Origin: Minisyncoccota bacterium
GTDB taxonomy: Bacteria; Patescibacteriota; Minisyncoccia; Phycocordibacterales; UBA9973
Length of the DNA stretch: 64,000 bases
Direction: 5' to 3'
Assembly: GCA_041665925.1 (NCBI GenBank)
Contig: JBAYHW010000002.1
Coordinates: 26,838 to 90,837 of the forward strand
Shown here one piece after another: positions 2,771 through 24,182 of this stretch. Under the pieces are notes generated by a model. It did not search any database. It saw only the letters and a list, made by a program, of their open reading frames with translations, and was not told where the DNA came from. Within the stretch, counting starts at the first letter, position 1. The number at the start of each line of letters is the position of its first letter. Made by a program: the position numbers and the translations under genes.

Positions 2771-3067
2771 ATGGAAAAGAAAAATCCTAAAATACTAGAA
2801 TACAAAAAAGAACTTCTGGAAGTTTTTTCAAGTATTAAGGGCGATAAAAAGCTAATGGCAGAATTTTTAATAGATATTTTGACACCCGCAGAGTTCGATG
2901 ACCTGGCCCTCAGGTGGCAGTTAGTAAAAAGATTGTATAAAGGAGATACCCATAGAGCTGTAGCAGGGGAGTTGGGTTTGGGTTTAGGGAAAGTCATGAG
3001 AGGATCTAGAGAACTTCGTAATAAAAAAGGGGGGTTTAATCTAATTCTTAAAAAACTAAGTAAGTAA
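2771..3067 (+). CDS. YerC/YecD-family (TrpR-like) helix-turn-helix protein
   Basis: 98 aa. DILTPAEFDDLALRWQLVKRL...GDTHRAVAGELGLGLGKVMRGSRELRN...GGFNLILKKL matches the conserved TrpR/YerC-YecD pattern (LLTP.E...L..R, TG.S..TI.R, GG[YF].L.L). It starts 8 nt after trpS and is probably co-transcribed. Confidence 0.7.
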   Translation: MEKKNPKILEYKKELLEVFSSIKGDKKLMAEFLIDILTPAEFDDLALRWQLVKRLYKGDTHRAVAGELGLGLGKVMRGSRELRNKKGGFNLILKKLSK

Positions 3068-3099
3068 ACACGGTACAGAGATTTAAAAGTTATCCCCAG

Positions 3100-3144
3100 A
3101 TGCAATTTGCATTATTTTTTTGTCCTGCTACTATGTACTAGTAC
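3100..3144. promoter_or_regulatory. Operator-like palindromes: ATGCAA-T-TTGCAT (3100-3112) and GTACTAGTAC (3135-3144), with flanking GGTACAGA direct repeats
   Basis: Perfect 6+1+6 and 10-bp palindromes read directly from the sequence. GTACTAGTAC contains the ACTAGT half-site of the classical E. coli TrpR operator (GTACTAGTTAACTAGTAC). They lie immediately downstream of the trpS / TrpR-like pair. Confidence 0.35.
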
Positions 3145-3374: not shown

Positions 3375-3548
3375 ATGGATGACAAAAGATCGGAAAATGT
3401 ATACACAGAACAGATGAAAGATGCACAAGAACTCATTTCCAAAGCCAGTGAAGCTCTGGGTGAGTTCAAATTTCGTACCGCATCCACTCTACTCAAACAA
3501 GCGACCGAACAGGTCGATGCACTGTGGGTAGACAAAACTTACTGGTAG
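3375..3548 (+). CDS. Hypothetical small protein (57 aa)
   Basis: Internal ATG of the 3231-3548 ORF, with AAAGGA upstream. The upstream part of the longer ORF looks non-protein-like. No recognisable family. Confidence 0.3.
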   Translation: MDDKRSENVYTEQMKDAQELISKASEALGEFKFRTASTLLKQATEQVDALWVDKTYW

Positions 3549-3994: not shown

Positions 3995-4168
3995 ATGTTT
4001 GATATCTCCACCCAAGTTGAGTGCCGCGAATGCGGCGCGAAGTTCGATCCGTTTTTCGGGCATAACTGCCCGAAGCAGAACAGCGTTGCCGTGGCGCCGA
4101 CAGCGTCGCGACGGGAACGAATCAGCTCGGATTTCCCCGACACAGGGACGTCCAACTGGTCGAAGTAA
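3995..4168 (+). CDS. Small Cys/His-containing protein (57 aa), possible zinc-ribbon
   Basis: SD GGGAGA 7 nt upstream of the ATG. MFDISTQVECRECGAKFDPFFGHNCPKQ... has CxxC...H..C. GC-rich. Flanked by its own promoter and terminator. Confidence 0.4.
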   Translation: MFDISTQVECRECGAKFDPFFGHNCPKQNSVAVAPTASRRERISSDFPDTGTSNWSK

Positions 4169-4380: not shown

Positions 4381-4467
4381 CCCGTTTAGCGGGGACATTG
4401 ATCTTTGACAAGTGAATAGTTGTTCTTTTTACGTTGGGGTCAAATCCAAAGAAAGGAGGTGAAGAAA

Positions 4468-6039
4468 ATGAATCCTACAGAAGTTAAAATTGTCATGGAG
4501 ACAATCAAAAAGTCTCTAGGCAACGGCGAGGATGGCTATAACCTGGCGGCACTTCTAAGAAGTGCAATCCAGAAGAAGGTCGCAGAGCTTGAAAAAGAAC
4601 GAAAAGAGAGGGGGGAAGAGGAAATTCAAAGGAAACTCGCTCTCCCTATTCAGCGGGCGGACAAACTTCTTTCTTCTGTTCCACGCCTAGTACTGGAAGA
4701 GATAGACAGTTACACCCGAAGTCATAAATGGGGCGAGCTGTCAGTCTCAGCCCAGCAGAAGTTGCATGAACTGGGCGTTCTCGATCTGTGGGCGAAACGC
4801 CGGACTTACGGACCGGATGGTGGAGAGAAACCTTCAGTCAGCTGGTTTGAACCATTCGGGAAAGCTCTGAAAAATCTCATCTGTAACAAGGTAGATGAGT
4901 TGCGTCGAAGTGACGCAGAGGCCACAGAGGCAGCTCGACAAGCTAGGTTGCAGCCAGCCCAAGAGCTTTTGAATGAGCTTTTAGCAAAGTCCGTCAGGCT
5001 TTCGCTCGAAGATGCAAAAGCTTGTAAGGAGGCGCTGGAGAAGTGGATCGAGGACAATGCCTACCGGCCGTACAGTGGTGGCGGCGGGGGTGGGAGTGGT
5101 TGTGTGGTTTCTGATTCGCAAGAGCCGTTCTTGCGAGGGCGATGGGGCCCGCCTATGAAGTGGCCCCCAACAAATTTTTCGGAGAGACAAATGAATCCGA
5201 TCAAAATCGCAGTGGTGGGATTCGGGGATTTCGGTTCCCGATTCGTTAGGTGGCTCCGGAAAGCGAGAGTCGGTGTCGAAACCATCGCGGTGGTAGACCC
5301 GATTCCTGGGAAAATCTGGGGCCCCGCGGGCGTTCTCGTGAGCCCCAGCATCCACGCAATCTCGCAGCGGGTCCTTTCACAGGTGCAGGTCTTCGTCGAT
5401 TGCACTTCCAAAGGGCAAGGCAAGGAGAATCTTGGTCTGTACCAAGCGCTCGGCAGACCGGCCGTGTTTCAAAACGGCGAAGACCGAGCGCTGTGTCAGT
5501 TGTTCCGCGCGGGCTCGACATTTCTTGCGGGAGCGCCGTACCTCCGCATCCCGCAGTGCTCGGCGCTGGCGACAATGAGTGTGTTTGAAGCGCTTCATCC
5601 GCTTCTCGACATTCGTTCCGTCTACACGCTCCATGCCAAGATCAACAACAAAGACAAAATGCTCGGCCTGGGCGACAAGTCTGCGGCCGACATCACCACG
5701 CTCGCAGAGATTCCGGCGGTCGTTGACGTGTGGTACTTGCGAGAGAAGCCGAAGCAGGGCCGCACGCAGTACGTCTACCACGGCAATCTGCACTTTCAGT
5801 GTGGGGGTGCAATTCCGTCGGCGGATCGCATTCGGAAAGCGCTCATGGCGTCCCGTGTGCCACTGTGTACGCAGGAGCTCGACTCGCTGATTTCACCACG
5901 TCTCACGCAGACGCACGTGGTCGCGGAGAGCATTTCGGTTCAGGGAAACAGCGTTCGCATGAACGTGATTTCCTGGACACCGGAAGTGAACTTTCCACAA
6001 AACCTGGCCGCAATCAAATTGCTGGCCAAAGTTCTTTAA
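4468..6039 (+). CDS. Fusion protein: unknown coiled-coil N-domain + poly-Gly linker + archaeal type-II GAPDH-like NAD(P)-binding dehydrogenase domain
   Basis: Strong SD AAAGGAGGTG 8 nt upstream of ATG 4468 (the track ORF starts at 4420). C-terminal half has IAVVGFGDFGSR (Rossmann), VFVDCTSKGQGKENLGLYQALGRPAVFQNGED (archaeal GAPDH signature DCTP.G.G..N...Y...G..A.FQGGE) and a conserved Cys in RIPQCSAL at the position of catalytic SCNTT. N-terminal ~230 aa has no recognisable family. Linker is SGGGGGGSG. GC is ~58% against a ~35% background. Confidence 0.6.
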   Translation: MNPTEVKIVMETIKKSLGNGEDGYNLAALLRSAIQKKVAELEKERKERGEEEIQRKLALPIQRADKLLSSVPRLVLEEIDSYTRSHKWGELSVSAQQKLHELGVLDLWAKRRTYGPDGGEKPSVSWFEPFGKALKNLICNKVDELRRSDAEATEAARQARLQPAQELLNELLAKSVRLSLEDAKACKEALEKWIEDNAYRPYSGGGGGGSGCVVSDSQEPFLRGRWGPPMKWPPTNFSERQMNPIKIAVVGFGDFGSRFVRWLRKARVGVETIAVVDPIPGKIWGPAGVLVSPSIHAISQRVLSQVQVFVDCTSKGQGKENLGLYQALGRPAVFQNGEDRALCQLFRAGSTFLAGAPYLRIPQCSALATMSVFEALHPLLDIRSVYTLHAKINNKDKMLGLGDKSAADITTLAEIPAVVDVWYLREKPKQGRTQYVYHGNLHFQCGGAIPSADRIRKALMASRVPLCTQELDSLISPRLTQTHVVAESISVQGNSVRMNVISWTPEVNFPQNLAAIKLLAKVL

Positions 6040-6160: not shown

Positions 6161-7177
6161 ATGCCGAACGCAAGTCATATTAATTTAAACCCTTACCCAC
6201 TAATGCTTTATGGCAGTCCGAGTGGAGTCAAGCATAGTCTAGTCGTTAAGGTTGCGAAGTTGTTGAAAAAACCTCTTTCCCCCTCTACTTATAAAGAATT
6301 TAAAGACGGTTCATTTTTGGTTCATCACAATGATTCAGTTCGAGATCGTGACGTTTATTTAATTCTACAACCTCGCTTTGGTAACAGAGAAATTCTTTCC
6401 TATGATTTAGACGAATGCGAATCTATGGTTTTGGCGCTAAAGCAAGGAGAGCCAAGTCGTATTACAGTCGTTATCCCATGTCTGCCATATTCAAGGCAAG
6501 ACAGAGGGTCTAATCACCGAGAGCCTGTACTAGTGCAAAAAGTTCCTATGCGTCTTCAGATGGCTGGGGCACACCGTCTCGTAACACTCCGACTACACAA
6601 TCCAGCGAGCTATAATGCCCATCCTTCTACGATACCTATTGTCGATGTGAATGTAGACGACCTTCTGGTAAAACATATTCGTTCAAAAAAGTTTGATCTA
6701 AAAAAATTTAAAATAGTCGCCCCAGACTTAGGCGCTGCTCCTTCGTGCAGAAAGCTTGCTCGCGAGCTCGGTATCCCAGAAAATATAATTATCATAAATA
6801 AGGTGCGTGATCCGAAAAAAGCAAACCACAATGAAGTCATGGAAGTGATAGGAGATGCAAAAGGTTTTAACTGCATTATTCCTGACGACATGGCCGATAC
6901 GTGCGGTACGGCTATAAAATCACTTTATGCGCTAAAAGAAAATGGAGCCAAGGATGTATATTTTACAGCGACGCACGCTGTTCTGTCTGGGACAGCTGTA
7001 CAGGATTTAAATAAGGCTCCGTTTGCCGGTATTTGGTTTACAGATTCTTGCATAGAAGGGGAAAAAGGGAAAATAAAAAATCTTGAAATAATCTCTACTG
7101 CGAAACTAATCGCAAAGATCATTGATAATTTACATAATGGCAAGTCAGTCACCGAACTTTGGCATAATGGAAAATAA
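6161..7177 (+). CDS. prs: Ribose-phosphate pyrophosphokinase (PRPP synthetase)
   Basis: 338 aa. LPYSRQDR (ribose-5-P binding loop) and IPDDMADTCGT (PRPP-binding motif DDM.DTGGT) are present. Overall collinear with Prs. Confidence 0.8.
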   Translation: MPNASHINLNPYPLMLYGSPSGVKHSLVVKVAKLLKKPLSPSTYKEFKDGSFLVHHNDSVRDRDVYLILQPRFGNREILSYDLDECESMVLALKQGEPSRITVVIPCLPYSRQDRGSNHREPVLVQKVPMRLQMAGAHRLVTLRLHNPASYNAHPSTIPIVDVNVDDLLVKHIRSKKFDLKKFKIVAPDLGAAPSCRKLARELGIPENIIIINKVRDPKKANHNEVMEVIGDAKGFNCIIPDDMADTCGTAIKSLYALKENGAKDVYFTATHAVLSGTAVQDLNKAPFAGIWFTDSCIEGEKGKIKNLEIISTAKLIAKIIDNLHNGKSVTELWHNGK

Positions 7178-7272: not shown

Positions 7273-8622
7273 ATGAAAAATCGTATTTATATTAAAGATT
7301 TGAAAGAAAACGTGGGGCAAGAAGTTCTTATTGCCGGCTGGGTGGATGTACGTCGTGATCAAGGCAAGATGGTATTTTTTGATATGCGGGATATGACAGG
7401 CAAGGTACAATGCGTGGTTTTGCCGAATCATATGGAGGCGATAGAGCAAGCAAAAGAGGTTAGACTAGAATGGGTTCTTAAAATGACTGGAATAGTAAAC
7501 AAACGTCCAGACAAAAATGTTAAGGCGGGAGTTTTGAATGGCGATATAGAAATCGAAGTTTTAGATATTGAAGTATTGTCTGAAGCGGCGCCTTTGCCTT
7601 TTGACATGTCGCTTGATGGATACAATTTAGATTTGACCACCGAGCTTGATAATCGAGCGTTGGTTCTCCGTCAACCGAAAGTGCAAGCGGTTTTTAAAGT
7701 GCAAGAGACCGTAATCGACTCCTTCCGTGAATTTATGAAAAAAAATATGTTTTTTGAATTTCAAGCGCCGAGTATCGCCCCGGCTGTCGCCGAAGGTGGG
7801 AGTGAAGTTTTTAAAGTTGATTATTTTGACAAGAAAGCATATTTAACTCAATCACCCCAGCTTTATAAGCAAATTGTAATGTCTGCTTTTGAGCGAGTTT
7901 TTTCAGTCAACAAAGTTTTCCGAGCCGAGCCTTCTTCTACGACTAGACATTTGACTGAAATTGTTTCCCTTGATGCCGAAATGGGTTTTATTGATTCTTG
8001 GGCAGATGTTCGTGATATGGCAGAAGAAACAGTAAGATACATACTAAAACAAGTTGAACAAAAAAATTCTGAACATTTGAAAATTTTAAATGCTGAGCTT
8101 CCAAAAATGATAGAAAAAACTCCCACCATGTCTCTGCGAGAAGTTCAGCAGAAAATTTTTGAAAAATCTGGACGAGATGTACGCGGAGAAAAAGATACCA
8201 ATCCTCAAGATGAACGTGAAATTTGCGAAATAATAAAAGAAGAAACCGGCTCTGATTTTGTATTTATATATGGATATCCGACCAGGAAAAAGCCTTTTTA
8301 TGTTTATCCAAATCCAGAGGAGCCTGAATACAATGAAGGTATGGATTTAATCTGTAGAGGCGTAGAATGGCTTTCAGGTGGAAGAAGAATTAATGATTAC
8401 AATCAACTTATGAAGCATGTGGAAATCTGGAAAATGGATCCAAGTAAAGTAAAAATGTTTTTGGAAGCTTTCAAATATGGAGTACCACCTGAAGGTGGAT
8501 TTGCTTTTGGCGCTGAACGTATCACCATGCAGCTTTTGGGTCTAAAAAATGTCCGTGAAGCCTCAATGTTTCCCCGAGACATGAACAGGATAGACGATAA
8601 ACTTAACAGCGACGGATATTAA
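7273..8622 (+). CDS. aspS: Aspartyl-tRNA synthetase, archaeal/eukaryotic-type class IIb (possibly non-discriminating). AsnRS not fully excluded.
   Basis: 449 aa. N-terminal OB-fold anticodon-binding domain. QSPQLYKQ, FRAEPSSTTRHLTEIVSLD and GAERITMQLLG are class II motifs 1-3 of the Asp/Asn/Lys subclass. Confidence 0.7.
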   Translation: MKNRIYIKDLKENVGQEVLIAGWVDVRRDQGKMVFFDMRDMTGKVQCVVLPNHMEAIEQAKEVRLEWVLKMTGIVNKRPDKNVKAGVLNGDIEIEVLDIEVLSEAAPLPFDMSLDGYNLDLTTELDNRALVLRQPKVQAVFKVQETVIDSFREFMKKNMFFEFQAPSIAPAVAEGGSEVFKVDYFDKKAYLTQSPQLYKQIVMSAFERVFSVNKVFRAEPSSTTRHLTEIVSLDAEMGFIDSWADVRDMAEETVRYILKQVEQKNSEHLKILNAELPKMIEKTPTMSLREVQQKIFEKSGRDVRGEKDTNPQDEREICEIIKEETGSDFVFIYGYPTRKKPFYVYPNPEEPEYNEGMDLICRGVEWLSGGRRINDYNQLMKHVEIWKMDPSKVKMFLEAFKYGVPPEGGFAFGAERITMQLLGLKNVREASMFPRDMNRIDDKLNSDGY

Positions 8623-9000: not shown

Positions 9001-9924
9001 ATGACATCATACACTGGACCTATTTTTATTATTATTGCAGCGCTGCTCTGGGCCTTTGATGGGCTTATTCGCCAGCATCTATACACACTCCCACCGATTA
9101 CAATAATATTTTTCGAGCATTTAATTGGTTTAATTATTTTATCTCCTTTTGTCCTTAAATATGTTTTAGAAACTAAACTTTCAAAACGAGAGTGGTGGCT
9201 AATAATATTGATATCAATTTTAAGCGGACTCTTCGGAACACTGTGGTTTACGACAGCGCTCGGCAAGGTGCACTTTATTTCAATTTCTGTAGTATTTCTT
9301 TTACAAAAATTACAGCCGATTTTTGCTATTACTTCGGCTCGTATTTTCTTGAAAGAAAAGCTAGATAGAAGATACATTAAATGGGCCCTCTTAGCACTCG
9401 CTTCTGCATATTTTGTAACTTTTCCGAACGGTATTGTAAATTTACAAACAGGTGAGGGGACAGTGATCGCAGCTTTATTTGCTCTCGGGGCTGCCTTTGC
9501 TTGGGGAACGTCTACCACATTTTCTAAAATGCTTTTAGGTAAGCTAGATTTTAAAGTCAGTACTTTTTATAGGTTTTTATTTACTCTTATCATCGCGTTT
9601 CCATTTGTATATATATTCGGTAGATCCTTTGGTGGATTTGAGCAAGTGCGTATATTTGCTATCCCGAGCGTATCACAATTTGCTTGGCTGGCGCTCGTCG
9701 CTGTGTCCACGGGCATGGTGGCGCTCCTCATTTATTATCGAGGGCTTGCAAAAACTTCTGTGCATGTTTCTACAATTCTAGAGCTGACGTTCCCATTCGT
9801 AGCTATTCTGCTTGATTTTACAGTAAACAACACAGTATTGTCTCTGTCACAATGGGTAGCGTCTTTTGTGCTCGTGTTTAGTATTTACCAAATAGCTCGC
9901 TTACGTGAAAATCTAAATGTCTAA
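9001..9924 (+). CDS. EamA/DMT-family membrane transporter
   Basis: 307 aa, about ten predicted TM helices arranged as two EamA-like halves. Confidence 0.55.
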   Translation: MTSYTGPIFIIIAALLWAFDGLIRQHLYTLPPITIIFFEHLIGLIILSPFVLKYVLETKLSKREWWLIILISILSGLFGTLWFTTALGKVHFISISVVFLLQKLQPIFAITSARIFLKEKLDRRYIKWALLALASAYFVTFPNGIVNLQTGEGTVIAALFALGAAFAWGTSTTFSKMLLGKLDFKVSTFYRFLFTLIIAFPFVYIFGRSFGGFEQVRIFAIPSVSQFAWLALVAVSTGMVALLIYYRGLAKTSVHVSTILELTFPFVAILLDFTVNNTVLSLSQWVASFVLVFSIYQIARLRENLNV

Positions 9925-10249
9925 TGATTTATTAAATAAAAAATGCGTACCATGCGAAGGGGGAGTGTTCCCGCTGACACGCGAAGAAATACCCCCTTAC
10001 ATGGCACAAATAAATGGCTGGGAACTTTCCGAAGACGCTACCGAGATTTCTAAGCAGTATAAATTCAAGGATTTTATCGGTGCGATAAATTTCGTGAATC
10101 ACGTAGCCGAAATTGCGGAGGCAGAAGGTCACCATCCAGACATTCATATCAATTACAATAAAGTGAAACTCGTGCTCTCCACGCACGCCATCGGCGGTCT
10201 CTCCGAGAACGACTTTATCCTAGCTGCGAAAGTAGACGCGAGCAAATAA
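9917..10249 (+). CDS. Pterin-4-alpha-carbinolamine dehydratase (PCD/DCoH)
   Basis: 110 aa. CVPCEGG...L near the N-terminus, and the EGHHPDI motif typical of PhhB/DCoH. Confidence 0.7.
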   Translation: MSNDLLNKKCVPCEGGVFPLTREEIPPYMAQINGWELSEDATEISKQYKFKDFIGAINFVNHVAEIAEAEGHHPDIHINYNKVKLVLSTHAIGGLSENDFILAAKVDASK

Positions 10250-10316
10250 AAAAAGGGCGTAGTAGTTGTGTTCCAAACTTGCTACGTCCTCTTTTGCGCG
10301 GGCCAGGCGCGATGAA

Positions 10317-10880
10317 TCAGTGAATGCCACCAGAACTTCCGCAGTAGTGCGAGTCCGATTTAAGCCGGAGTACAATGAACCCACGACGGCGAAGTTGTAA
10401 GAGAGGGTGACGGTTTCCGTTTTTGAATGCGGAAATCGACTTCTCGCGATCTCTGAGGTCTGCTCTGTACTTCTGCATGTCCGTTTTGTATTTCAGAGAG
10501 TACAGCTTGTTGATCTCGTCGATCACCTTCGAGAGTGATCTTTCCAAACCAAGAGATTTAATCTCAGAGATCCTGATTTTAATCTGGCTTCCCTCGAAAC
10601 AAACCTCATCTCTGTAAAGATACGAAGTCTTGGGATTAAATGCCCTCTCGAGCCCTTGACGAATCCATTCAACAGTGAGCTTGCTAGTACCCCGAGGACG
10701 CTTGGGACGGATAGGTTTCCGGAATAGGTCGTCGATGAGATTCTCTTCGCGCTTGTAGACCGCACATGGAATGTTCACTGATGCGAGCGTCTCATCGATT
10801 GTTCCAGTCGCATCCTTGAGTTCTTTCCAATTTCGTACGATCTTGCCGCGCTTGACCGAATATTTTTCGATACTAAGCAT
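10317..10880 (-). CDS. Hypothetical protein (187 aa), unknown family, elevated GC
   Basis: Strong SD AAAGGAGGTGA 8 nt upstream of the minus-strand ATG. GC ~47% against a ~35% background. No recognisable motifs. Lies downstream of a TrpR-like gene of similar GC. Confidence 0.55.
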   Translation of the reverse strand: MLSIEKYSVKRGKIVRNWKELKDATGTIDETLASVNIPCAVYKREENLIDDLFRKPIRPKRPRGTSKLTVEWIRQGLERAFNPKTSYLYRDEVCFEGSQIKIRISEIKSLGLERSLSKVIDEINKLYSLKYKTDMQKYRADLRDREKSISAFKNGNRHPLLQLRRRGFIVLRLKSDSHYCGSSGGIH

Positions 10881-10939
10881 CCCTTTTCACCTCCTTTCTA
10901 TTTGATTTTAAAGAACGATAGGTTTTTCCTACTAACGCA

Positions 10940-10968
10940 AAACCCCCTCCACAATGGAGGGGGTTAGG
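10940..10968. terminator. Bidirectional intrinsic terminator CCCCCTCC-ACAATG-GGAGGGGG flanked by A/T runs
   Basis: Perfect 8-bp GC stem with A-run upstream and T-run downstream (AAAACCCCCTCC...GGAGGGGGTTAGG). Sits between the two minus-strand genes. Confidence 0.5.
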
Positions 10969-10984
10969 TTCGAAATAAAAATAA

Positions 10985-11377
10985 TTACGAGCTCAAACGC
11001 AACCCTTTCCGTTGTGGAGAAGAGTTGCTGCGATGTAAACGAGAAAGAATCAAGCGGTAGCCACCGAGGGAGCCGTAAAGCCATTTGGCGATGCGGGCGA
11101 TGGTGGTGGAAGAAAGCCCCGTCGATTCGCTGATAGCTTCGTATTGGACGTCGCGAGAGAGAAGCCGTGCGGCTTCGAGGCGCTTGCTGAATTCGGTAAT
11201 TTCCGCGGGGGTCAGGAGGTCGCGGAGAAACCGCTTAGCTTCATCGGTCGTTTTCAGCTCTAAAATACCAGCCACCAGCTGCCTGGTTTCCTTGGTATTC
11301 CAATCCGCATCCGAGCCGATCTCGGTCACCAGCCGGACTGTTTTTACCTTCGTATTTTTATTCATTCCCGTACTCAT
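10985..11377 (-). CDS. YerC/YecD-family (TrpR-like) DNA-binding protein, second paralog
   Basis: 130 aa. LRDLLTPAEITEFSKRLEAARLLSRDVQYEAISESTGLSSTTIARIAKWLYGSLGGYRLILSRL matches the YerC/TrpR family pattern very closely. GC ~52%. Confidence 0.75.
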   Translation of the reverse strand: MSTGMNKNTKVKTVRLVTEIGSDADWNTKETRQLVAGILELKTTDEAKRFLRDLLTPAEITEFSKRLEAARLLSRDVQYEAISESTGLSSTTIARIAKWLYGSLGGYRLILSRLHRSNSSPQRKGLRLSS

Positions 11378-11380
11378 CCG

Positions 11381-11423
11381 TCTACTTTAGCAAACTAAAG
11401 TACTTTAGTCAAGTAAAGTAGAT
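11381..11423. promoter_or_regulatory. Operator array: four alternating half-sites TACTTTAG / CTAAAGTA, including the perfect 14-bp palindrome CTAAAGTACTTTAG
   Basis: Read directly: TCTACTTTAG-caaa-CTAAAGTACTTTAG-tcaag-TAAAGTAGA. It lies immediately upstream of the TrpR-like gene start (11377, minus strand) and in the divergent promoter region of the GNAT gene. GTAC core as in TrpR operators. Confidence 0.5.
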
Positions 11424-11475
11424 AAAAAAGGTGTGGATAACTTTTTTCTTATAATCTATTTGCTATAATGCCTGG

Positions 11476-12009
11476 ATGGCTGAAGATTTGTTTAAAATAG
11501 AAGACGCTAAGCCGGAAGATGTGGTTGGAATACGCAGTATCATCCGAGATAGCTGGCTAAAGATTTACCCCAACGAAGATTATGGAATCAAAGTTGAAGA
11601 TATTGCCACGATTGACTGGTTTAATGCTGAAAGCCTGGAGATTCGGAGAAAAGAAATTATGGAAAAAACTGATTCAGTTCACGTCTTTGTCGTAAAAAAT
11701 GACAAAAAAGATATCATGGCTTTTTGTAAAGTTTTGAGACATGACGATTGCGGGGAAATAGATGCGATATACATCGTTCCTGAATTTCAGCGAAAGGGAA
11801 TAGGCCAAAAGCTAATACAAAAAGCTTTTGAGTGGCTAGGACCTGAACTCGATATAAAATTAGTGGTAGTAAAATACAATTATCCGGCAATCGAATTCTA
11901 CAAAAAATTCGGGTTCAAAGAAACTGCGAAAAAAGTTATTTATGATGGGACCCAACTCCCGAGCGGAAAAGAAATTCCTAGAATTGAAATGGTAAGACTA
12001 AAAAATTAG
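11476..12009 (+). CDS. GNAT-family N-acetyltransferase
   Basis: 177 aa. Acetyl-CoA-binding motif QRKGIGQKL and surrounding GNAT core (IVPEFQRKGIG...). Confidence 0.7.
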   Translation: MAEDLFKIEDAKPEDVVGIRSIIRDSWLKIYPNEDYGIKVEDIATIDWFNAESLEIRRKEIMEKTDSVHVFVVKNDKKDIMAFCKVLRHDDCGEIDAIYIVPEFQRKGIGQKLIQKAFEWLGPELDIKLVVVKYNYPAIEFYKKFGFKETAKKVIYDGTQLPSGKEIPRIEMVRLKN

Positions 12010-15369: not shown

Positions 15370-15934
15370 TCTAGAAAACAAAATAGAAGCAATACTTTTC
15401 TTTAAGGGTGAACCGGTATCTTTTAAAAAATTAGAAGATATTTTGCAAGTTTCCAAGAACGAAATTAAAGATGCTATTTTTAATTTAAAAAATAATTTAG
15501 AAAATAGGGGAGTGGTGCTTTTAGAACAAGGTGAAGAGATAACACTTGGCACCGCACCCGAATTTTCTAAACTCATAGAACATTTACAGAAAGAAGAATT
15601 GAATAAGGAACTTTCTAAAGCATCGCTAGAAACACTTTCAATTGTTTTATATAAAAATGGAGCTAGTCGAGCAGAGATTGATTATATTCGCGGAGTAAAT
15701 TCTAGCTTCACTCTACGTGCACTTTCTGTGCGCGGGCTAGTAGAAAAGACCCTAGATCCGAAGGACAACAGGCGATATATCTATAAACCAAGCTTTGATC
15801 TTATTTCATTTATGGGAGTTACATCTGTGGAAGAACTGCCAGATTATTCAGAAGTGATCAACGGTATTGAAATCGCCACTAAGACCCTAGAAGAAGAAAC
15901 AAAAAAAGAGGAAGCAAATGCAAGCGCAAACTAA
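15347..15934 (+). CDS. scpB: Segregation and condensation protein B
   Basis: 195 aa. IEAILFFKGEPVSFKKLEDIL... and a second winged-helix GASRAEIDYIRGVNSSFTLRALSVRGLVEK, typical of ScpB. Overlaps scpA. Confidence 0.85.
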   Translation: MKIQMNNSLENKIEAILFFKGEPVSFKKLEDILQVSKNEIKDAIFNLKNNLENRGVVLLEQGEEITLGTAPEFSKLIEHLQKEELNKELSKASLETLSIVLYKNGASRAEIDYIRGVNSSFTLRALSVRGLVEKTLDPKDNRRYIYKPSFDLISFMGVTSVEELPDYSEVINGIEIATKTLEEETKKEEANASAN

Positions 15935-17669
15935 AACCTGCCAAAATTGCAAAAACGACTTCACCATAGAGCCGGACGATTTTGGATTTTATGAAAAAAT
16001 AATAGTTCCTCCACCGACCTTTTGCCCGGAGTGTAGACTGCAAAGGAGGCTCGCTTGGAGGAATGAAAAAAGTTTGTATAGTCGAGAATGTGATTTATGT
16101 AAAAAGAAGATGATTTCTATATACAGCGTAGAGGCGAAATCTTTGGTTTATTGCAATCAATGCTGGTGGGGCGATGGATGGGAAGGAAATCAGTACGCAA
16201 TGGATGTGGATTTCTCAAGACCTTTTCTGAATCAGTTTTTTGATCTTTTCCATAAAGTTCCTGCTCCCAACCTTTTTGCGTTTAGTAAAAATATGGTTAA
16301 TTCCCAATATTGCAACATGGCCAACGATATGAGAAATTGTTATTTGGTCCACGATGGAACCTTTGACGAAAACGTTTCTTATGGTAGTGGAGTTTTTCAT
16401 TCCAAAGATTCTCAAGACGTTACAATGGTTCGTAAATGTGAGCTGTGTTATGAAATTATAACCTGCATTAATTGCTACCATACTACTTTTTCACAGCAGT
16501 GTGAGGATTGCGTTGACGTACACTTTTCTTTTGGGCTAAGGGGTTGCAACAATTGTTTTGGTTGCGTGAACTTACACAAGCAGAGTTATTGTATTTTCAA
16601 TGAACAATATACCAAAGAGGAATATGAAGAAAAATTGAAATCGTTTGGAATTGATTCTTATAAAAAGGTGAATGAATTGAAAGATAAGGTACACGAGTTC
16701 TGGAAAAAATTCCCCAAGAGATATTATTTTGGTGTTCAAAATTTAAACGTAACGGGTGACTATCTTGAGCATTCTAAAAACGCAAAGTCCTGTTTTGGTG
16801 CAGCAAATTTAGAAGATTCAAAATTTTGTTCATTTGTTTCGAACGGACCAGTAAAAACAACTTATGATTTTACCCATTACGGAGATAACATAGAACTAGT
16901 CAACGAATCTTTGCAGTCAGGAGACGGCATATATAATATAAAATGTGGTTGGGGCACATGGACTAATTCAAGGAATGTGAATTACGGCATTACTTGTCCA
17001 GGAGTTTCAGATATTTTTGGATGTGTTGGGGTTAAGAAAAAACAATATTGTATTTTAAATAAACAATATACTAAAGAAGAATACAAAGAATTGGTTTCAA
17101 AAATTATTAAACATATGAATGAGATGCCTTACATTGATAAGAAAGGCAGAATTTATAAATATGGTGAATTCTTCCCAGTAGATTTTTCACCTTTTGGATA
17201 CAATGAAACGACTGCGCAAGAATATTTTCCCCTAGATCAAGCGCAAGCAATTGCAAAAGGTTACAATTGGAAAGAAAACAAGGAACGAAATTATCACATA
17301 ACAAAAGATTCAGAAGAACTTCCTGATAATATCAATGAAATTGCTGACTCACTTTTAGACGACGTAATTGGCTGTGCACACAAGGGAAGATGTGAAGATG
17401 ACTGTATGACTGCTTTTAAAATTTTATCCGAGGACTTGAAATTTTACCGACGAATGAATTTGCCCTTACCCAGACTTTGCCCCAACTGCAGACGCTACCA
17501 GAGAATAAAATTAAGGAATCCGCTCAAACTTTGGCACAGGCAATGCATGTGTGATAAAAAGCACCCTAACCACGAAGGAAAATGCGAAGTAGAATTCGAA
17601 ACTTCCTACGCACCCGATAGACCAGAAATAATTTATTGCGAAAGTTGTTATAACAAAGAAGTCTACTAA
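15918..17669 (+). CDS. Large cysteine-rich protein (583 aa, ~36 Cys mostly as CxxC pairs), unknown family; paralog A
   Basis: N-terminal zinc-ribbon module CQNC...FYEKIIVPPPTFCPECRLQRRLAWRN...CDLC. Homologous C-terminal module FYRRMNLPLPRLCPNCRRYQRIKLRNPLKLWHRQCMC. Central Cys-rich repeats end in YCIFNEQYTKEEYEE / YCILNKQYTKEEYKE. Overlaps scpB stop by 17 nt. Confidence 0.7.
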   Translation: MQAQTKTCQNCKNDFTIEPDDFGFYEKIIVPPPTFCPECRLQRRLAWRNEKSLYSRECDLCKKKMISIYSVEAKSLVYCNQCWWGDGWEGNQYAMDVDFSRPFLNQFFDLFHKVPAPNLFAFSKNMVNSQYCNMANDMRNCYLVHDGTFDENVSYGSGVFHSKDSQDVTMVRKCELCYEIITCINCYHTTFSQQCEDCVDVHFSFGLRGCNNCFGCVNLHKQSYCIFNEQYTKEEYEEKLKSFGIDSYKKVNELKDKVHEFWKKFPKRYYFGVQNLNVTGDYLEHSKNAKSCFGAANLEDSKFCSFVSNGPVKTTYDFTHYGDNIELVNESLQSGDGIYNIKCGWGTWTNSRNVNYGITCPGVSDIFGCVGVKKKQYCILNKQYTKEEYKELVSKIIKHMNEMPYIDKKGRIYKYGEFFPVDFSPFGYNETTAQEYFPLDQAQAIAKGYNWKENKERNYHITKDSEELPDNINEIADSLLDDVIGCAHKGRCEDDCMTAFKILSEDLKFYRRMNLPLPRLCPNCRRYQRIKLRNPLKLWHRQCMCDKKHPNHEGKCEVEFETSYAPDRPEIIYCESCYNKEVY

Positions 17670-17703: not shown

Positions 17704-18528
17704 TTACAGGCACTCGGGGTTAATACCAAGTACGTAATCGTTTACGAGATTCATTCTTTTTACGTTCTCATCACCGGCAAAACCAGCTATGTCATTATTA
17801 GTCACTAGAGCTTTATATTTTTCAGTAAACTCTTTTGCAAGAGGTAAGTAAGACCAGTGCCACTTTTCTTCATTGTAGCCAGTGGGGCGAGCTTGGCCTT
17901 TTGCAGTATACGGCTGACAGAATCCAAAGCTGGCAGCATTGACGACTAGCCACTCATAAACTTTTCTTCCTGCTTCTGTCTGGAAGTAGTAGGGGACTGT
18001 CATGTTTATATCTATATCTGTGCCCCAATGGTGCCTGGAGGTGCTAGGCACTGAGCTATATTCTAATATTTTCTTAAATCTTTCTAAGCCGTCAGGAATG
18101 GATTCATTTAATTTCTTTCCGTCAACTAAAGTAACACCTGTCCATTTATCATCCCAAATCTTTTTCTGGGAATTGAAATTTCTCACAGCAGAAACTATCT
18201 GTAGATCCACATTTTCTTTTTTAGCTGTTTCGGCCATTTGAATAAAAGCTTCTAGGGCTTCCTTTCTTAAATATGTCGTGTACCCGCTCATGTTGTATTC
18301 TTTAGGGACGTGTACGAAATCTTCTCTATCGCTCGGATTAAATTTACCCAACAAATAAAGCCTCGTTTCTGCGTCTTTTTTAAGCTGTTGCTCAATCAAT
18401 ATTTTTTGTTTAACAATTTCCTCCTCTTTTTGTTTTTTTAACGCTGAAATTGAGGAATTTATCATCATTCCGCCAATAACTACCAACAAAACCAAAGGAA
18501 AAATGTATTTTATAATATCTTTTTTCAC
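17704..18528 (-). CDS. VanY-like D-alanyl-D-alanine carboxypeptidase (peptidase M15B), membrane-anchored
   Basis: Motifs SAVRNFNSQKKIW (SxxRS..Q), SRHHWGTDIDIN (SxHxxGxAxD) and FGFCQPY...EEKWHWSY (YGF...EPWHxxY). N-terminal TM anchor. Start taken as GTG at 18528. The track ORF extends to 18735, but that stretch overlaps the neighbouring gene start and looks non-coding. Confidence 0.7.
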   Translation of the reverse strand: MKKDIIKYIFPLVLLVVIGGMMINSSISALKKQKEEEIVKQKILIEQQLKKDAETRLYLLGKFNPSDREDFVHVPKEYNMSGYTTYLRKEALEAFIQMAETAKKENVDLQIVSAVRNFNSQKKIWDDKWTGVTLVDGKKLNESIPDGLERFKKILEYSSVPSTSRHHWGTDIDINMTVPYYFQTEAGRKVYEWLVVNAASFGFCQPYTAKGQARPTGYNEEKWHWSYLPLAKEFTEKYKALVTNNDIAGFAGDENVKRMNLVNDYVLGINPECL

Positions 18529-18564
18529 TCGCAAAGAATAGCATATTTTGGTACAATTTACTAA

Positions 18565-20301
18565 ATGAAGGCGGAAATTAAAGTTTGTCAAAACTGCAAG
18601 AGTGATTTTACGGTAGAGCCGGATGATTTTGGATTTTATGAAAAAATCAAAGTTCCTCCACCGACCTTCTGTCCGGATTGTAGGAGACAGAGACGCTGGG
18701 CTTGGCGGAACAACATGTCGCTCTATAATCGACAATGTAAGTCCTGCGGCAAAGGCGTGATTTCACTTTACCATCCTGATTCAGGCCTAACTGTTTATTG
18801 TAATAAGTGTTGGTGGAGCGACAAATGGGATTCAAAAAGTTTTGGCGTAGATTATGATTTTTCAAAACCATTTTTTACTCAATTCCGAGAACTTATAGGA
18901 AAAGTTCCACACATGTCTATTGTAAATGATAATGATATTGCAAGTTTAAATTGCGAATATACCCACGACTGGTGGTTCTCTAAGAATTGCTATATGTGTT
19001 TTTCTGGGTGGAATACAGAGAATATAATGTATAGTTTTTTTATTCTTGCTGGTAGAGATATGGTTGACTGTATGAACATAAGATCAAAAAGTGAGCAGTT
19101 ATATGAATGTATTATTTGTTCGCATGGTTACCAAGTTAAAAATTCAATTTATTCTAGTTCTTGTTTGAATTCACAATTTTTATATTGGTGTAAAAATTGC
19201 AGTGATTGTTTTTTGTGTTCAGAATTAGTTGGTAAAAAATATTGTTACAAGAATGAGCAATATTCAGAAGAAGAATACGAAAAGATTTTAAAAGAATATA
19301 GATTAGATACTTGGAGCGGGGTAGAGCGGGCTCAAAAAGAATATGATGAATTTATTTTAAAATTTCCTAGAAAATATAGTAATTCTATTCGGAACTTAAA
19401 TTGTACTGGAGAGCTAGTATCTGATTCAAAGAATTCAAAAAATTGTTTTGTGACAAAAAATGCGGAAAATTGTAGATATAATGAATATTCGGGAGATGGT
19501 AATAATTCAAATAAAGATTGCTACGATATTACAACCACAGGTGGAGTATCGGAATGTTATGAATGTGTTGTTGGAGATCACTCGCAGTTTAATTTGTTTG
19601 GACTTTTTTCGGTTAAAAGTCAAGATATAAAATATTGTCAGCATTGTCATAACTGTAAACATTGTTTCGGGTGCGTCGGGTTGCGCAATGCGAATTATTG
19701 TATTTTTAATAAACAATATACCAAGAAAGAATATGAGGAGTTAGTGCCTAAAATAATTAGACATATGAATGACATGCCTTATGTCGACAAAAGAGGAAAT
19801 GAGTATAAATTTGGGGAGTATTTTCCTGTAGAGCTTTCGTATTTTGGATATAATGAATCCTGCGCAATGGAACAATTTCCCCTTGATAAACAGAAAGTCC
19901 TTGAGAACAAATATAATTGGCAAGACAATATTCAGCGAACAACAGGGAAGGAAACACTAGAATCAGACAAAATTCCCGAAAGTATAGATGAAGTAAACGC
20001 TTCAATACTGAAGGAAGTGCTAGCTTGTATAGAATGCCACAGAAACTACAAAATAGTTCCTAATGAATTAATATTCTACAGAAAAATGAAGATTCCTATT
20101 CCGAGAAAGTGTTTTTATTGTCGTCATGAGGCTAGAATTAAAAGAAATAATCCTTTTAAACTCTGGCATAGGCAATGTATGTGTGATAAGAAACATCCAC
20201 ATCACGAAAAGAAGTGCGGGATAGAATTTGAGACGAGTTACGCACCCGATAGACCGGAGATAGTGTACTGTGAAAAATGTTATCAAGCGGAAGTTTATTA
20301 G
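18565..20301 (+). CDS. Large cysteine-rich protein (578 aa), paralog B of 15918-17669
   Basis: Collinear with paralog A. MKAEIKVCQNCKSDFTVEPDDFGFYEKIKVPPPTFCPDCRRQRRWAWRN... at the N-terminus and ...NPFKLWHRQCMCDKKHPHHEKKCGIEFETSYAPDRPEIVYCEKCYQAEVY at the C-terminus are near-identical to A. Central CxxC repeats with YCIFNKQYTKKEYEE. Confidence 0.7.
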   Translation: MKAEIKVCQNCKSDFTVEPDDFGFYEKIKVPPPTFCPDCRRQRRWAWRNNMSLYNRQCKSCGKGVISLYHPDSGLTVYCNKCWWSDKWDSKSFGVDYDFSKPFFTQFRELIGKVPHMSIVNDNDIASLNCEYTHDWWFSKNCYMCFSGWNTENIMYSFFILAGRDMVDCMNIRSKSEQLYECIICSHGYQVKNSIYSSSCLNSQFLYWCKNCSDCFLCSELVGKKYCYKNEQYSEEEYEKILKEYRLDTWSGVERAQKEYDEFILKFPRKYSNSIRNLNCTGELVSDSKNSKNCFVTKNAENCRYNEYSGDGNNSNKDCYDITTTGGVSECYECVVGDHSQFNLFGLFSVKSQDIKYCQHCHNCKHCFGCVGLRNANYCIFNKQYTKKEYEELVPKIIRHMNDMPYVDKRGNEYKFGEYFPVELSYFGYNESCAMEQFPLDKQKVLENKYNWQDNIQRTTGKETLESDKIPESIDEVNASILKEVLACIECHRNYKIVPNELIFYRKMKIPIPRKCFYCRHEARIKRNNPFKLWHRQCMCDKKHPHHEKKCGIEFETSYAPDRPEIVYCEKCYQAEVY

Positions 20302-23705: not shown

Positions 23706-24182
23706 ATGTTTCAGAAGTTCGTGTCTCTGGGGGAGTTCAGCAAACTCTCACATAAAGACAAAACGGTTGTGATGACCACTGGGGTGTTTGACGTGCCACA
23801 CGTAGGGCATCCACGCTACTTATACACGGCAAGGATGCTGGGCGACCTGCTCGTGGTCGGAGTGCATTCCGACGAGCTGGTTCGCCAGAGGAAGGGTGAA
23901 GGACGACCGATTTACCCACTGGAAGAGCGGGTGGAGTTGTTGTCTTATTACGGTTGCGTGGACTTCATCCTGGAACTCAAAGACCAGGAAGATGTCTATG
24001 GGACGATCCGGACCGTAAGGCCAAAAATCCTAGTGGTGTCGACGACCACTGAGGACGAGGCCAACAGCCCGGCCACCATGAGCTCAATGTTCGGCGACAG
24101 CATGGCGGTTGCCGTACTCGGGCCACAGTCATTCCGACACACGACAGATCTCGTCGAAAAACAGGAGGTGATCGAAAAATGA
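23706..24182 (+). CDS. Cytidylyl/adenylyltransferase-like protein (RfaE domain II / TagD-like nucleotidyltransferase), GC-rich
   Basis: 158 aa. TTGVFDVPHVGHPRYLYTARMLGDLLVVGVHSDELVRQRKGEGRPIYPLEERVELL matches the HIGH-type nucleotidyltransferase core of heptose-1-P adenylyltransferase / glycerol-3-P cytidylyltransferase. SD GGAGGAG upstream. GC ~54% against ~35% in the flanks. Confidence 0.65.
   Translation: MFQKFVSLGEFSKLSHKDKTVVMTTGVFDVPHVGHPRYLYTARMLGDLLVVGVHSDELVRQRKGEGRPIYPLEERVELLSYYGCVDFILELKDQEDVYGTIRTVRPKILVVSTTTEDEANSPATMSSMFGDSMAVAVLGPQSFRHTTDLVEKQEVIEK

Follow-up and report, generated by a model that had tools for sequence, protein, structure and literature searches.

The locus considered here raises the question of whether a GC-rich regulator gene and the gene directly behind it entered their genome together. 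It is located in a 64,000-nucleotide stretch, referred to below as the window, of contig JBAYHW010000002.1 from the metagenome-assembled genome of a Minisyncoccota bacterium (Candidatus Paceibacterota; assembly GCA_041665925.1), where an open reading frame (ORF) for a 130-residue, TrpR-like protein of the YerC/YecD family is followed on the same strand by one for a 187-residue protein. The original prediction, made from the letters of the window, regarded the regulator as an acquired extra paralog and the pair as a transferable regulator/effector cassette. Comparison with 84 related loci, 80 of which stem from GTDB species representatives, points to a different explanation, to which we would assign a probability of roughly 0.6: the regulator gene, designated hisR, is a resident gene with an attenuator at its 3' end, and the 187-residue protein is a foreign-looking orphan encoded in a slot that this attenuator would control. 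The two genes are as follows.

10985-11377, minus strand: hisR, predicted gene of a YerC/YecD-family, TrpR-like histidine repressor (130 aa).
10317-10880, minus strand: gene of the 187-aa near-orphan protein (NCBI MFA6520256.1), led by a strong Shine-Dalgarno sequence (SD), GGAGGTG.

Both ORFs are real, and profile searches bear out the TrpR-family assignment of the first. The hisR product matches the Pfam family Trp_repressor, PF01371 (4e-16; 59.3 bits, cut-off 27), and the NCBIfam family TIGR02531, yecD_yerC (5.8e-17; 61.9 bits, cut-off 42.2), while its score of 17.3 bits against the TrpR equivalog model is far under the cut-off of 67.25. The closest solved structure is 3G1C (4.9e-11), a TrpR-like protein of E. 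eligens that has been named HisR, the TrpR-family histidine repressor for which yerC codes in B. subtilis (PMC9413887). The HisR motif reported for Firmicutes, Actinobacteria and Synergistetes, in a survey outside of which the genomes of the candidate phyla radiation (CPR) fall, is cacTTTAnnnnnnTAAAgtg, and about half of the hisR genes have a HisR site upstream of themselves (PMC9413887). Sites of this type are found upstream of the gene in the window, together with a promoter and a DnaA box.

11383-11402 and 11401-11420: two overlapping perfect 20-bp HisR-type operators, TACTTTA-N6-TAAAGTA, matching cacTTTAnnnnnnTAAAgtg.
11384-11412, minus strand: hisR promoter from the promoter scan, with -35 TTGACT (11407-11412), 17 nt, and -10 TAAAGT (11384-11389).
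11432-11440, minus strand: perfect DnaA-box consensus TTATCCACA, ~11 nt upstream of the operator array.

Because the family matches pass their cut-offs, 3G1C is the closest structure, the operator motif fits and histidine genes lie directly downstream of hisR in 11 of 65 relatives (HisI in five, HisG in three and HisRS in three), the 130-residue regulator is HisR, a predicted histidine repressor. In the window itself no histidine gene adjoins hisR. The protein possesses a clade-specific conserved N-terminal extension of ~28 residues and a C-terminal tail of ~16 residues, the latter being conserved at the amino-acid level. It is 31% identical over 67 aa to the product of the first TrpR-like gene of the window (2771-3067), which is located directly after trpS, is also present at 22 of the 84 loci, and scores higher with the TrpR model than with the YerC model, making it, by these scores, the better TrpR candidate of the two.

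The two operators are the sole sites with two or fewer mismatches in the 64 kb, and the 38-nt array that they form recurs, with at most six mismatches, at 68 of 82 loci; on this distribution the array is judged to be ancestral to hisR in this class. They are established as sequence, and their binding by HisR is what family membership would predict. The promoter sits inside the array, an arrangement kept in relatives, and its -10 element ends 6 nt upstream of the ATG; therefore, the hisR mRNA is predicted to be leaderless, while the burial of the promoter in two operators upstream of HisR's own gene implies autoregulation. The DnaA box is the only exact copy of TTATCCACA in the window. An exact or one-mismatch version occurs upstream of hisR at 50 of 68 loci, with a spacing of 9-12 nt to the array at 45; where PepM1 abuts hisR, the motif falls in the final codons of PepM1 (K-L-I-H-T). 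A link of DnaA to his-operon attenuation has been reported for E. coli (PMC10989985).

The ancestry of hisR was assessed from its homologs and its surroundings. The gene has more than 1394 homologs, the best 120 of which are 64-87% identical and all carry PF01371; those few with an organism-named source all belong to the Parcubacteria group. The order ScpB-ScpA-PepM1-hisR-(slot)-PCD-EamA-flavokinase-AspRS of the relatives is that of the window, reversed, and within 6 kb PepM1 is kept at 32 of the 84 loci, PCD at 29, EamA at 34 and AspRS at 47. The closest hisR genes are those of loci L001 (87% identity) and L006 (80%), which are also closest for the flanks (PepM1, 79 and 78%; PCD, 78 and 81%; EamA, 83 and 83%). 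Since hisR and its flanks share their nearest relatives, a distant donor is not indicated, and this candidate origin was dropped. DNA similarity to relatives spans 11446-10934 (promoter, ORF and terminator) and again 10314-10016 (PCD with its terminator, including the hairpin shared with the 187-aa gene; 83% identity to L006), and genome-unique DNA is confined to ~10315-10933, i.e., the 187-aa ORF and its short leader. Judged by sequence and synteny, hisR is a resident syntenic core gene, the ortholog of a highly conserved Paceibacteria gene, and not an acquired copy.

These results bear directly on the proposed cassette, in which an acquired YerC-like regulator would control a 187-residue effector and move with it as a unit. 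Such a cassette would explain why both genes are GC-rich, adjacent and on the same strand, why the regulator has its own operators and terminator, and why the start signal of the 187-aa gene is of a non-native type. The operators and the terminator are indeed present, yet they are no mark of a cassette because they are ancestral and near-invariant in ~80 loci; hisR holds a conserved syntenic position and shares its nearest relatives with the flanking genes. The pairing of regulator and 187-residue protein is not recurrent, because a relative of the latter was found at none of the 84 hisR loci, its only homolog occurring elsewhere. Furthermore, the operator scan of the 64 kb detected no HisR operator upstream of the 187-aa gene, and neither mobility genes nor flanking direct or inverted repeats were found at the locus, where the neighbours are housekeeping genes. 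A cassette is consequently considered highly improbable, and the 187-aa gene would be tied to hisR via the slot, whose expression is predicted to occur by read-through of the hisR terminator.

The 3' end of hisR reads as a his-type ribosome-mediated attenuator with the tail of the repressor as leader peptide, a predicted switch built on helices and conservation that are observed across the relatives. Its elements in the window are listed below.

11033-11035, minus strand: His remnant CAT (H115), a lone His codon, the window having CAT CGC AGC where relatives have CAT CAT CAC.
11018-11027, minus strand: region 1, CAACUCUUCU, codons N-S-S, pairing with region 2 according to pairing statistics and folding.
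11000-11010, minus strand: region 2, GGAAAGGGUUG, codons R-K-G-L, pairing with region 1 or region 3.
10993-10998, minus strand: extension GUUUGA, which adds to region 2.
10956-10973, minus strand: region 3, UCGAAC plus UAACCCCCUCC, serving the terminator as 5' arm and the antiterminator as 3' arm.
10941-10950, minus strand: region 4, GGAGGGGGUU, which with region 3 forms the hisR intrinsic terminator found by the terminator scan.
10934-10940, minus strand: U tract after region 4.

A repeat search indicated that the last ten hisR codons (11019-10993) are complementary to 10973-10947, a segment that includes the 5' arm of the terminator. The GC stem between the two genes (10941-10966) had been described as a bidirectional terminator; the stem is there and is conserved in 68 loci, but it functions on the minus strand only. 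Alignment of 63 loci revealed a common layout, in which the His codons (usually CAT CAT CAC) are followed by region 1, AACUCUUCC (N-S-S), a 7-nt loop, region 2, GGAAAGGGUUG (R/L-K-G-L), four codons and the stop, an AT-rich spacer, region 3, UCGAA..AACCCCUUCC, a loop, and region 4, GGAAGGGGUU, with its U tract. As in classical attenuators, regions 1 and 3 are alike, and so are regions 2 and 4. Among the last 28 codons, at least two consecutive His codons are present in 72 of the 84 relatives and at least three in 41, and the run of two to four codons reaches to the first base of region 1, where a stalled ribosome would cover that region.

Helices 1:2, 2:3 and 3:4 are all present in the window, and in the 63 aligned loci they are paired to 86.9%, 86.3% and 97.6%, respectively, as compared to 36-78% for slid controls across the three helices (37-60% for 1:2 and 36-62% for 2:3). 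Compensatory changes occur in each of them. For example, helix 1:2 exhibits CG<->UA compensation in 15 sequences, where a synonymous Asn change accompanies a Gly change from GGG to GGA; helix 2:3 exhibits AU<->GC in 11 sequences, with Lys AAA becoming Arg AGA exactly as the terminator stem changes; and helix 3:4 exhibits UA<->CG in 13 sequences and CG<->UA in 16. Helix 2:3 also contains 63 double-change cells versus 21.6 +/- 5.6 after shuffling, a comparison in which kinship alone can push counts above the shuffled controls, structure being absent; because of this effect of relatedness, the case for attenuation leans chiefly on slid controls, codon bias and gene context.

The codon bias is pronounced, as GGG accounts for 68% of tail Gly codons versus 8.5% of other hisR Gly codons, and TTG for 95% of tail Leu codons versus 14% elsewhere. 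Duplex energies calculated for 77 loci average -15.9 kcal/mol for the tail with region 3 and -5.6 for other 33-nt windows of the ORF, the tail being the best window of its ORF in 82% of these loci; the corresponding value for the present locus is -19.3 (z -6.1). Full-length RNAs of L001 and L070 fold into helices 1:2 and 3:4, and when truncated before region 4 they adopt 2:3. The genes downstream of hisR in relatives typically possess an SD and mostly lack a promoter. If histidine is plentiful, the ribosome would clear the His codons, helices 1:2 and 3:4 would form, and transcription would terminate after hisR. If His-tRNA is scarce, the ribosome would halt on the His codons and mask region 1, upon which region 2 would pair with region 3 and RNA polymerase would read into the next gene.

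The gene that would be reached by such read-through lies in the slot between hisR and PCD, the latter and the GNAT gene having been correctly named as flanks in the original prediction. The features concerned are the following.

10881-10933, minus strand: leader of the 187-aa gene, with motif GTTCTTTAA at 10908-10916, TAAAAT at 10905-10910, and the SD GGAGGTG at 10888-10894.
10255-10296, between two genes: hairpin common to the convergent PCD and 187-aa genes, GGGCGTAGTA ... TGCTACGTCC plus a T run, read from the sequence.
9917-10249: PCD gene, flank of the 187-aa gene.
11476-12009, plus strand: GNAT gene, flank of hisR.

At 28 loci the slot measures 430-4229 bp and contains mostly unrelated ORFs, including nine of a HAD-like family (at seven loci), three PNP genes and many singletons, while the first slot gene, surveyed at 65 loci, is often SLOG/LOG-like (nine), a methyltransferase or GNAT. 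On the comparison of these loci, the 187-aa gene is a lineage-specific occupant of a variable slot. It is proposed that the slot, which holds hisG, hisI or hisS in some relatives, was taken over by diverse accessory genes in most Paceibacteria. A broader and more tentative suggestion, which we would place a little short of even odds, is that in Paceibacteria the HisR repressor and the his leader peptide are a single ORF, so that repression and attenuation would both come from one gene, and that the slot became, after loss of histidine biosynthesis, a landing pad where foreign, GC-rich, SD-led genes like that of the 187-residue protein would be under histidine-starvation control in genomes whose mRNAs are otherwise leaderless. 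The far end of the slot is closed by the hairpin shared with PCD (10255-10289), which is a truly bidirectional terminator, native and kept in relatives. An integron attC-like site at the slot boundary was considered and rejected, as GTTCTTT does not match GTTRRRY.

The leader of the 187-aa gene (10881-10933) contains no canonical promoter according to the promoter scan, and TTGTTCTTTGA was dropped as a promoter because its hexamers and spacing are unfit; expression of the gene would occur by read-through, from its own weak, -10-only promoter, or by both routes. The motif TTGTTCTTT[GA]A is located between the terminator and the SD of the post-hisR gene in 19 loci, where it is ~127-fold enriched, and it occurs after other terminator hairpins too. 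The motif (T)TTTGTTCTTTGA directly follows terminator-like hairpins at 10908-10916 (minus strand), 3330, 3973 and 4420 of the window and at many loci, including positions behind the trpS-linked TrpR-like gene of the window, L010, L014, L027, L044 and L082; it precedes SD-led genes and may be either a leader element or an extension of the U tract.

At least 20 loci possess a second HisR operator array at the far slot end, adjacent to the 3' end of the PCD gene (examples being L004 7211-7248, L012 3242-3279, L036 7934-7971, L019 7457 and L023 8011); in many cases it is nearly a copy of the promoter array. It precedes a leaderless EamA-like gene in L019 and a PNP gene in L023, and neither the window nor L001, L003 or L006 has it. 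Clusters of at least three copies of the palindrome TTACGTAA occur between the second array and the PCD stop in L011 (~7080-7130) and L036 (~7990-8050).

A number of observations weigh against the explanation favoured here. The sensor of the window is degenerate, since the His run is cut to one codon and helix 2:3 has an additional A.C mismatch (pair 35-105). For the full 3' region, minimum free energy is reached by one extended hairpin (-44.6 kcal/mol, z -6.4) that combines helix 2:3 with an upstream segment pairing with region 4, and in view of this hairpin the switch may be altered or non-functional in the window. Region 2 is additionally under coding constraint, and covariation counts in kin sequences may exceed shuffles without any structure. 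A ribosome that has reached the stop codon leaves all but the 3' part of region 2 uncovered, and the logic of the switch needs helix 1:2 to re-form behind it. Moreover, most slot genes are not histidine-related, and the -10-like TAAAAT of the 187-aa gene, which is located 5 nt upstream of the SD region without a -35, perhaps makes read-through unneeded. Read-through, stalling and HisR binding are all predictions.

A rival explanation is that attenuation does not take place at all, with the tail and the His run serving the protein (for example in metal or ligand binding, or in oligomerisation) and the complementarity to the terminator either stabilising the 3' end of the mRNA or having arisen by chance. 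Under this explanation hisR would be strictly monocistronic and the slot genes would be expressed independently, in keeping with the amino-acid conservation of the tail, the strength of the terminator, the histidine-unrelated majority of slot genes, the possible -10 box of the 187-aa gene and the effect of relatedness on the shuffle controls. It is nevertheless deemed unlikely, given that synonymous sites of the tail are far more constrained than those in the rest of hisR, that compensatory changes affect both alternative helices, K<->R exchanges tracking the terminator stem among them, that the His codons are positioned exactly one ribosome half-footprint 5' of region 1, and that hisG, hisI or hisS is directly next, with an SD and without a promoter, in 11 of the 65 loci. 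Attenuation through the hisR tail is therefore the preferred reading of the 3' end.

Turning to the 187-residue protein, the earlier statement that it has no known family was confirmed: no match was obtained in Pfam, PHROGs or NCBIfam, and PADLOC returned only an insignificant hit to PbeA (E 0.014). The protein is a near-orphan, 15 billion proteins including a single homolog. An exhaustive phmmer search of 1.84 billion cluster representatives yielded this one true homolog (P0122), a 194-residue protein from a soil read set, for which no contig is recorded and which is 35% identical from the first to the last residue (E 3.4e-15), with conservative substitutions and the same start and end. Another candidate (P0123), a repetitive low-complexity protein, was dropped as a compositional match. 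A word-indexed search with the 187-residue protein returned only itself, a profile search from the family found no members beyond the two, profile-derived scans of genome and viral contigs found no relatives, degenerate patterns run on metagenome and viral contigs gave chance matches to the motif only, and a profile search of PDB sequences gave nothing. The possibility that the ORF is a decayed HAD, PNP or other slot gene of the relatives was rejected, as no similarity was detected.

The protein is predicted to be soluble and is basic, with an isoelectric point of 9.95 and a net charge of ~+17. Its AlphaFold2 confidence (pLDDT) rose from 41 to 69 on adding the single extra sequence, and the resulting model, which has no significant fold match, has an alpha/beta domain at the N-terminus, joined via a basic, disordered linker to a long helix at the C-terminus. 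The charge invites the guess that this is a nucleic-acid-binding accessory protein. Being nearly an orphan, devoid of family and fold matches and situated in GC-rich DNA, where stop codons are few, the ORF might be suspected of being a chance product of non-coding sequence. This is very improbable, however, and we argue for a real gene because the similarity to the homolog is co-linear over the full length, the SD is strong and correctly spaced, and the model gained confidence from one added sequence.

The unusual composition of both genes, likewise stated earlier, holds up in a comparison with the 58 other ORFs of the window, which itself has an average GC of 0.379. For hisR, GC is 0.534 and GC at third codon positions (GC3) is 0.618 (z = 4.0 and 4.2), and for the 187-aa ORF these values are 0.473 and 0.543 (z = 2.5 and 3.1). 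The GC excess of hisR over its flanks is +0.155, as opposed to a mean of +0.020 (sd 0.040, maximum +0.096) at the 84 related loci. Start signals are equally informative. Most genes of this genome have no SD. Of 61 ORFs, 25 show a leaderless-type -10 box that ends 5-11 nt upstream of the start codon, and AGGAGG precedes just three of the 61, all of them GC-rich (4468-6039, 10317-10880 and 23706-24182). In a set of 756 ORFs drawn from the window and 83 related loci, an SD precedes 1-4% of the ORFs of typical composition and 42% of those with GC at least 0.10 above their own locus, with ~2% for an internal-ATG control. The leaders of 4468-6039 and of the 187-aa gene are nearly alike, AGAAAGGAGGTGAA. 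In an AT-rich genome of mostly leaderless genes, a GC-rich gene with an SD stands out, and on these grounds the 187-aa gene is probably foreign.

In the case of hisR, the signals are native despite the GC excess, and clade members of higher GC exist, hisR having a GC of 0.51 in L122 and L123, with 83% DNA identity for L122. We infer from this that a close relative of higher GC may have supplied both the GC-rich hisR allele and the slot gene through homologous recombination, for which the invariant promoter array and the PCD end would provide the homology arms. This import is advanced as a hypothesis because its donor lies outside the sampled relatives; the best DNA identity to any relative, 83%, and the congruence of the HisR phylogeny with that of the flanks speak against the favoured explanation at this point.

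The same excess of GC, the largest among 85 loci, could also be produced by an assembly artefact, i.e., a chimeric contig carrying the hisR region of a higher-GC relative. The assembler might have been misled by the high conservation of hisR and its control elements across species, and a Logan contig does end inside hisR. A chimera is hardly credible, though, because the independent Logan assembly shows the same 187aa-PCD-EamA junction; in addition, the conserved stretches are far below the k = 141 that the contig name suggests, DNA identity to relatives is 83% or less, and two more GC-rich SD-led ORFs are embedded elsewhere in the window. The resident hisR gene with a probably foreign gene behind it is thus retained as the preferred account.

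Placed beside known systems, the regulator resembles HisR, B. subtilis YerC/YecD (PMC9413887), in passing the family cut-offs, in its operator, in the location of that operator upstream of its own gene and in the linkage to hisG, hisI or hisS in some relatives. It differs in its length (~130 aa versus ~100, owing to the N-terminal extension and the tail), in having two overlapping operators over a leaderless promoter, and in that most Paceibacteria, the window included, lack an adjacent histidine gene. With E. coli TrpR it shares the Pfam family and fold class, palindromic operators over the promoter, and, by prediction, autoregulation, whereas it falls far under the TrpR equivalog cut-off and its operator is of the HisR type and not of the GTACTAGT type.

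The 3' element corresponds to the leader-peptide attenuators of the enterobacterial his and trp operons in that relatives have a run of cognate codons 5' of region 1 and in its four regions, with a 1:2 helix, a 2:3 antiterminator and a 3:4 terminator followed by a U tract; as in those systems, histidine genes are located downstream in some lineages, and repressor control is combined with it, as in the trp operon. In contrast, there is no separate short leader ORF here, the sensing codons being among the last 16 codons of hisR, and regions 1 and 2 are coding sequence of the regulator; for these reasons the element is filed as a variant, and not a member, of this class. It is further distinguished by a run of two to four His codons (one in the window), by a regulated gene that varies, and by its absence from Rfam 15, no family of which matches it. 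The his attenuators of Firmicutes have three to five His codons (PMC9413887).

The slot is comparable to variable hotspots of pangenomes in its conserved flanks (the hisR and PCD terminators), its content, unrelated from genome to genome, and the atypical composition of the inserted genes. It is unlike them in having no integrase, tRNA or repeats and in being located directly behind a conserved terminator/antiterminator and leader motif, and therefore inserted genes would inherit a ready-made, regulated expression site.

To our knowledge, almost nothing is known of gene regulation in Parcubacteria/CPR, and for one of their most conserved small regulators a function (HisR), a binding motif and a mode of regulation are proposed here. 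In the literature, no description was found of an attenuator that senses via the C-terminal tail of its pathway's own repressor, and this fusion of repressor and attenuator sensor is apparently undescribed. If the reading is correct, ribosome-mediated attenuation operates in ultra-small bacteria with mostly leaderless mRNAs and can be embedded in ordinary coding sequence, and attenuator searches limited to short leader ORFs would overlook such elements. A pre-regulated slot may, furthermore, offer foreign genes that land in it a way to be expressed in these genomes. For the original prediction the outcome is deflationary, as there is no mobile regulator-effector cassette and the 187-residue protein stays an orphan.

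Further observations concern other parts of the window and of the related loci. In L001 and L122, the closest relatives, and also in L036, PepM1 directly abuts hisR; compared with these loci, the GNAT gene that separates the two in the window is an insertion. It has native composition and a leaderless-type promoter (TATAAT 6 nt before the ATG). At the syntenic position of AspRS (7273-8622 in the window), L004-L036 contain two classes of this synthetase, 81-89% and 38-52% identical to the window protein, which suggests replacement of the synthetase type in some lineages. Relatives also carry a VanY gene beyond ScpB.

Among the GC-rich segments, the island 4468-6039 (plus strand; GC 0.55, up to 0.60) encodes a 523-aa ORF whose partial match to type II GAPDH is weak and for which the 84 loci contain no relative, and its leader (4398-4467) contains a hairpin, ATTGATCTTTGA / TTGTTCTTT motifs and an SD region that nearly equals that of the 187-aa gene. 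Two 57-aa ORFs (3375-3548 and 3995-4168, both on the plus strand) are each preceded by TTGTTCTTT, the second having a GC of 0.575 and a CxxC...C motif; similar small, Cys-containing, SD-led ORFs (6513-6794 and 6658-6981) occupy the slot of the closest relative L006. The SD-led ORF 23706-24182 (plus strand; GC 0.541, GC3 0.673), located after a MurG-like gene as read from the translation, fits the GC-rich, SD-led class, and its 158-aa product looks like a cytidylyltransferase by eye.

Downstream of the trpS-linked TrpR-like gene, TTATCCCCA (3090-3098) and the perfect palindrome GTACTAGTAC (3135-3144) are present on the plus strand; the latter resembles the E. coli trp operator core and may be an operator of the trpS-linked regulator. 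Finally, 15918-17669 and 18565-20301 (plus strand) encode paralogous Cys-rich proteins of ~580 aa that have N- and C-terminal sequences in common (..CQNCK.DFT.EPDDFGFYEKI.. / ..EFETSYAPDRPEI.YCE.CY..EVY) and flank an opposite-strand ORF of 343 aa (17704-18735).

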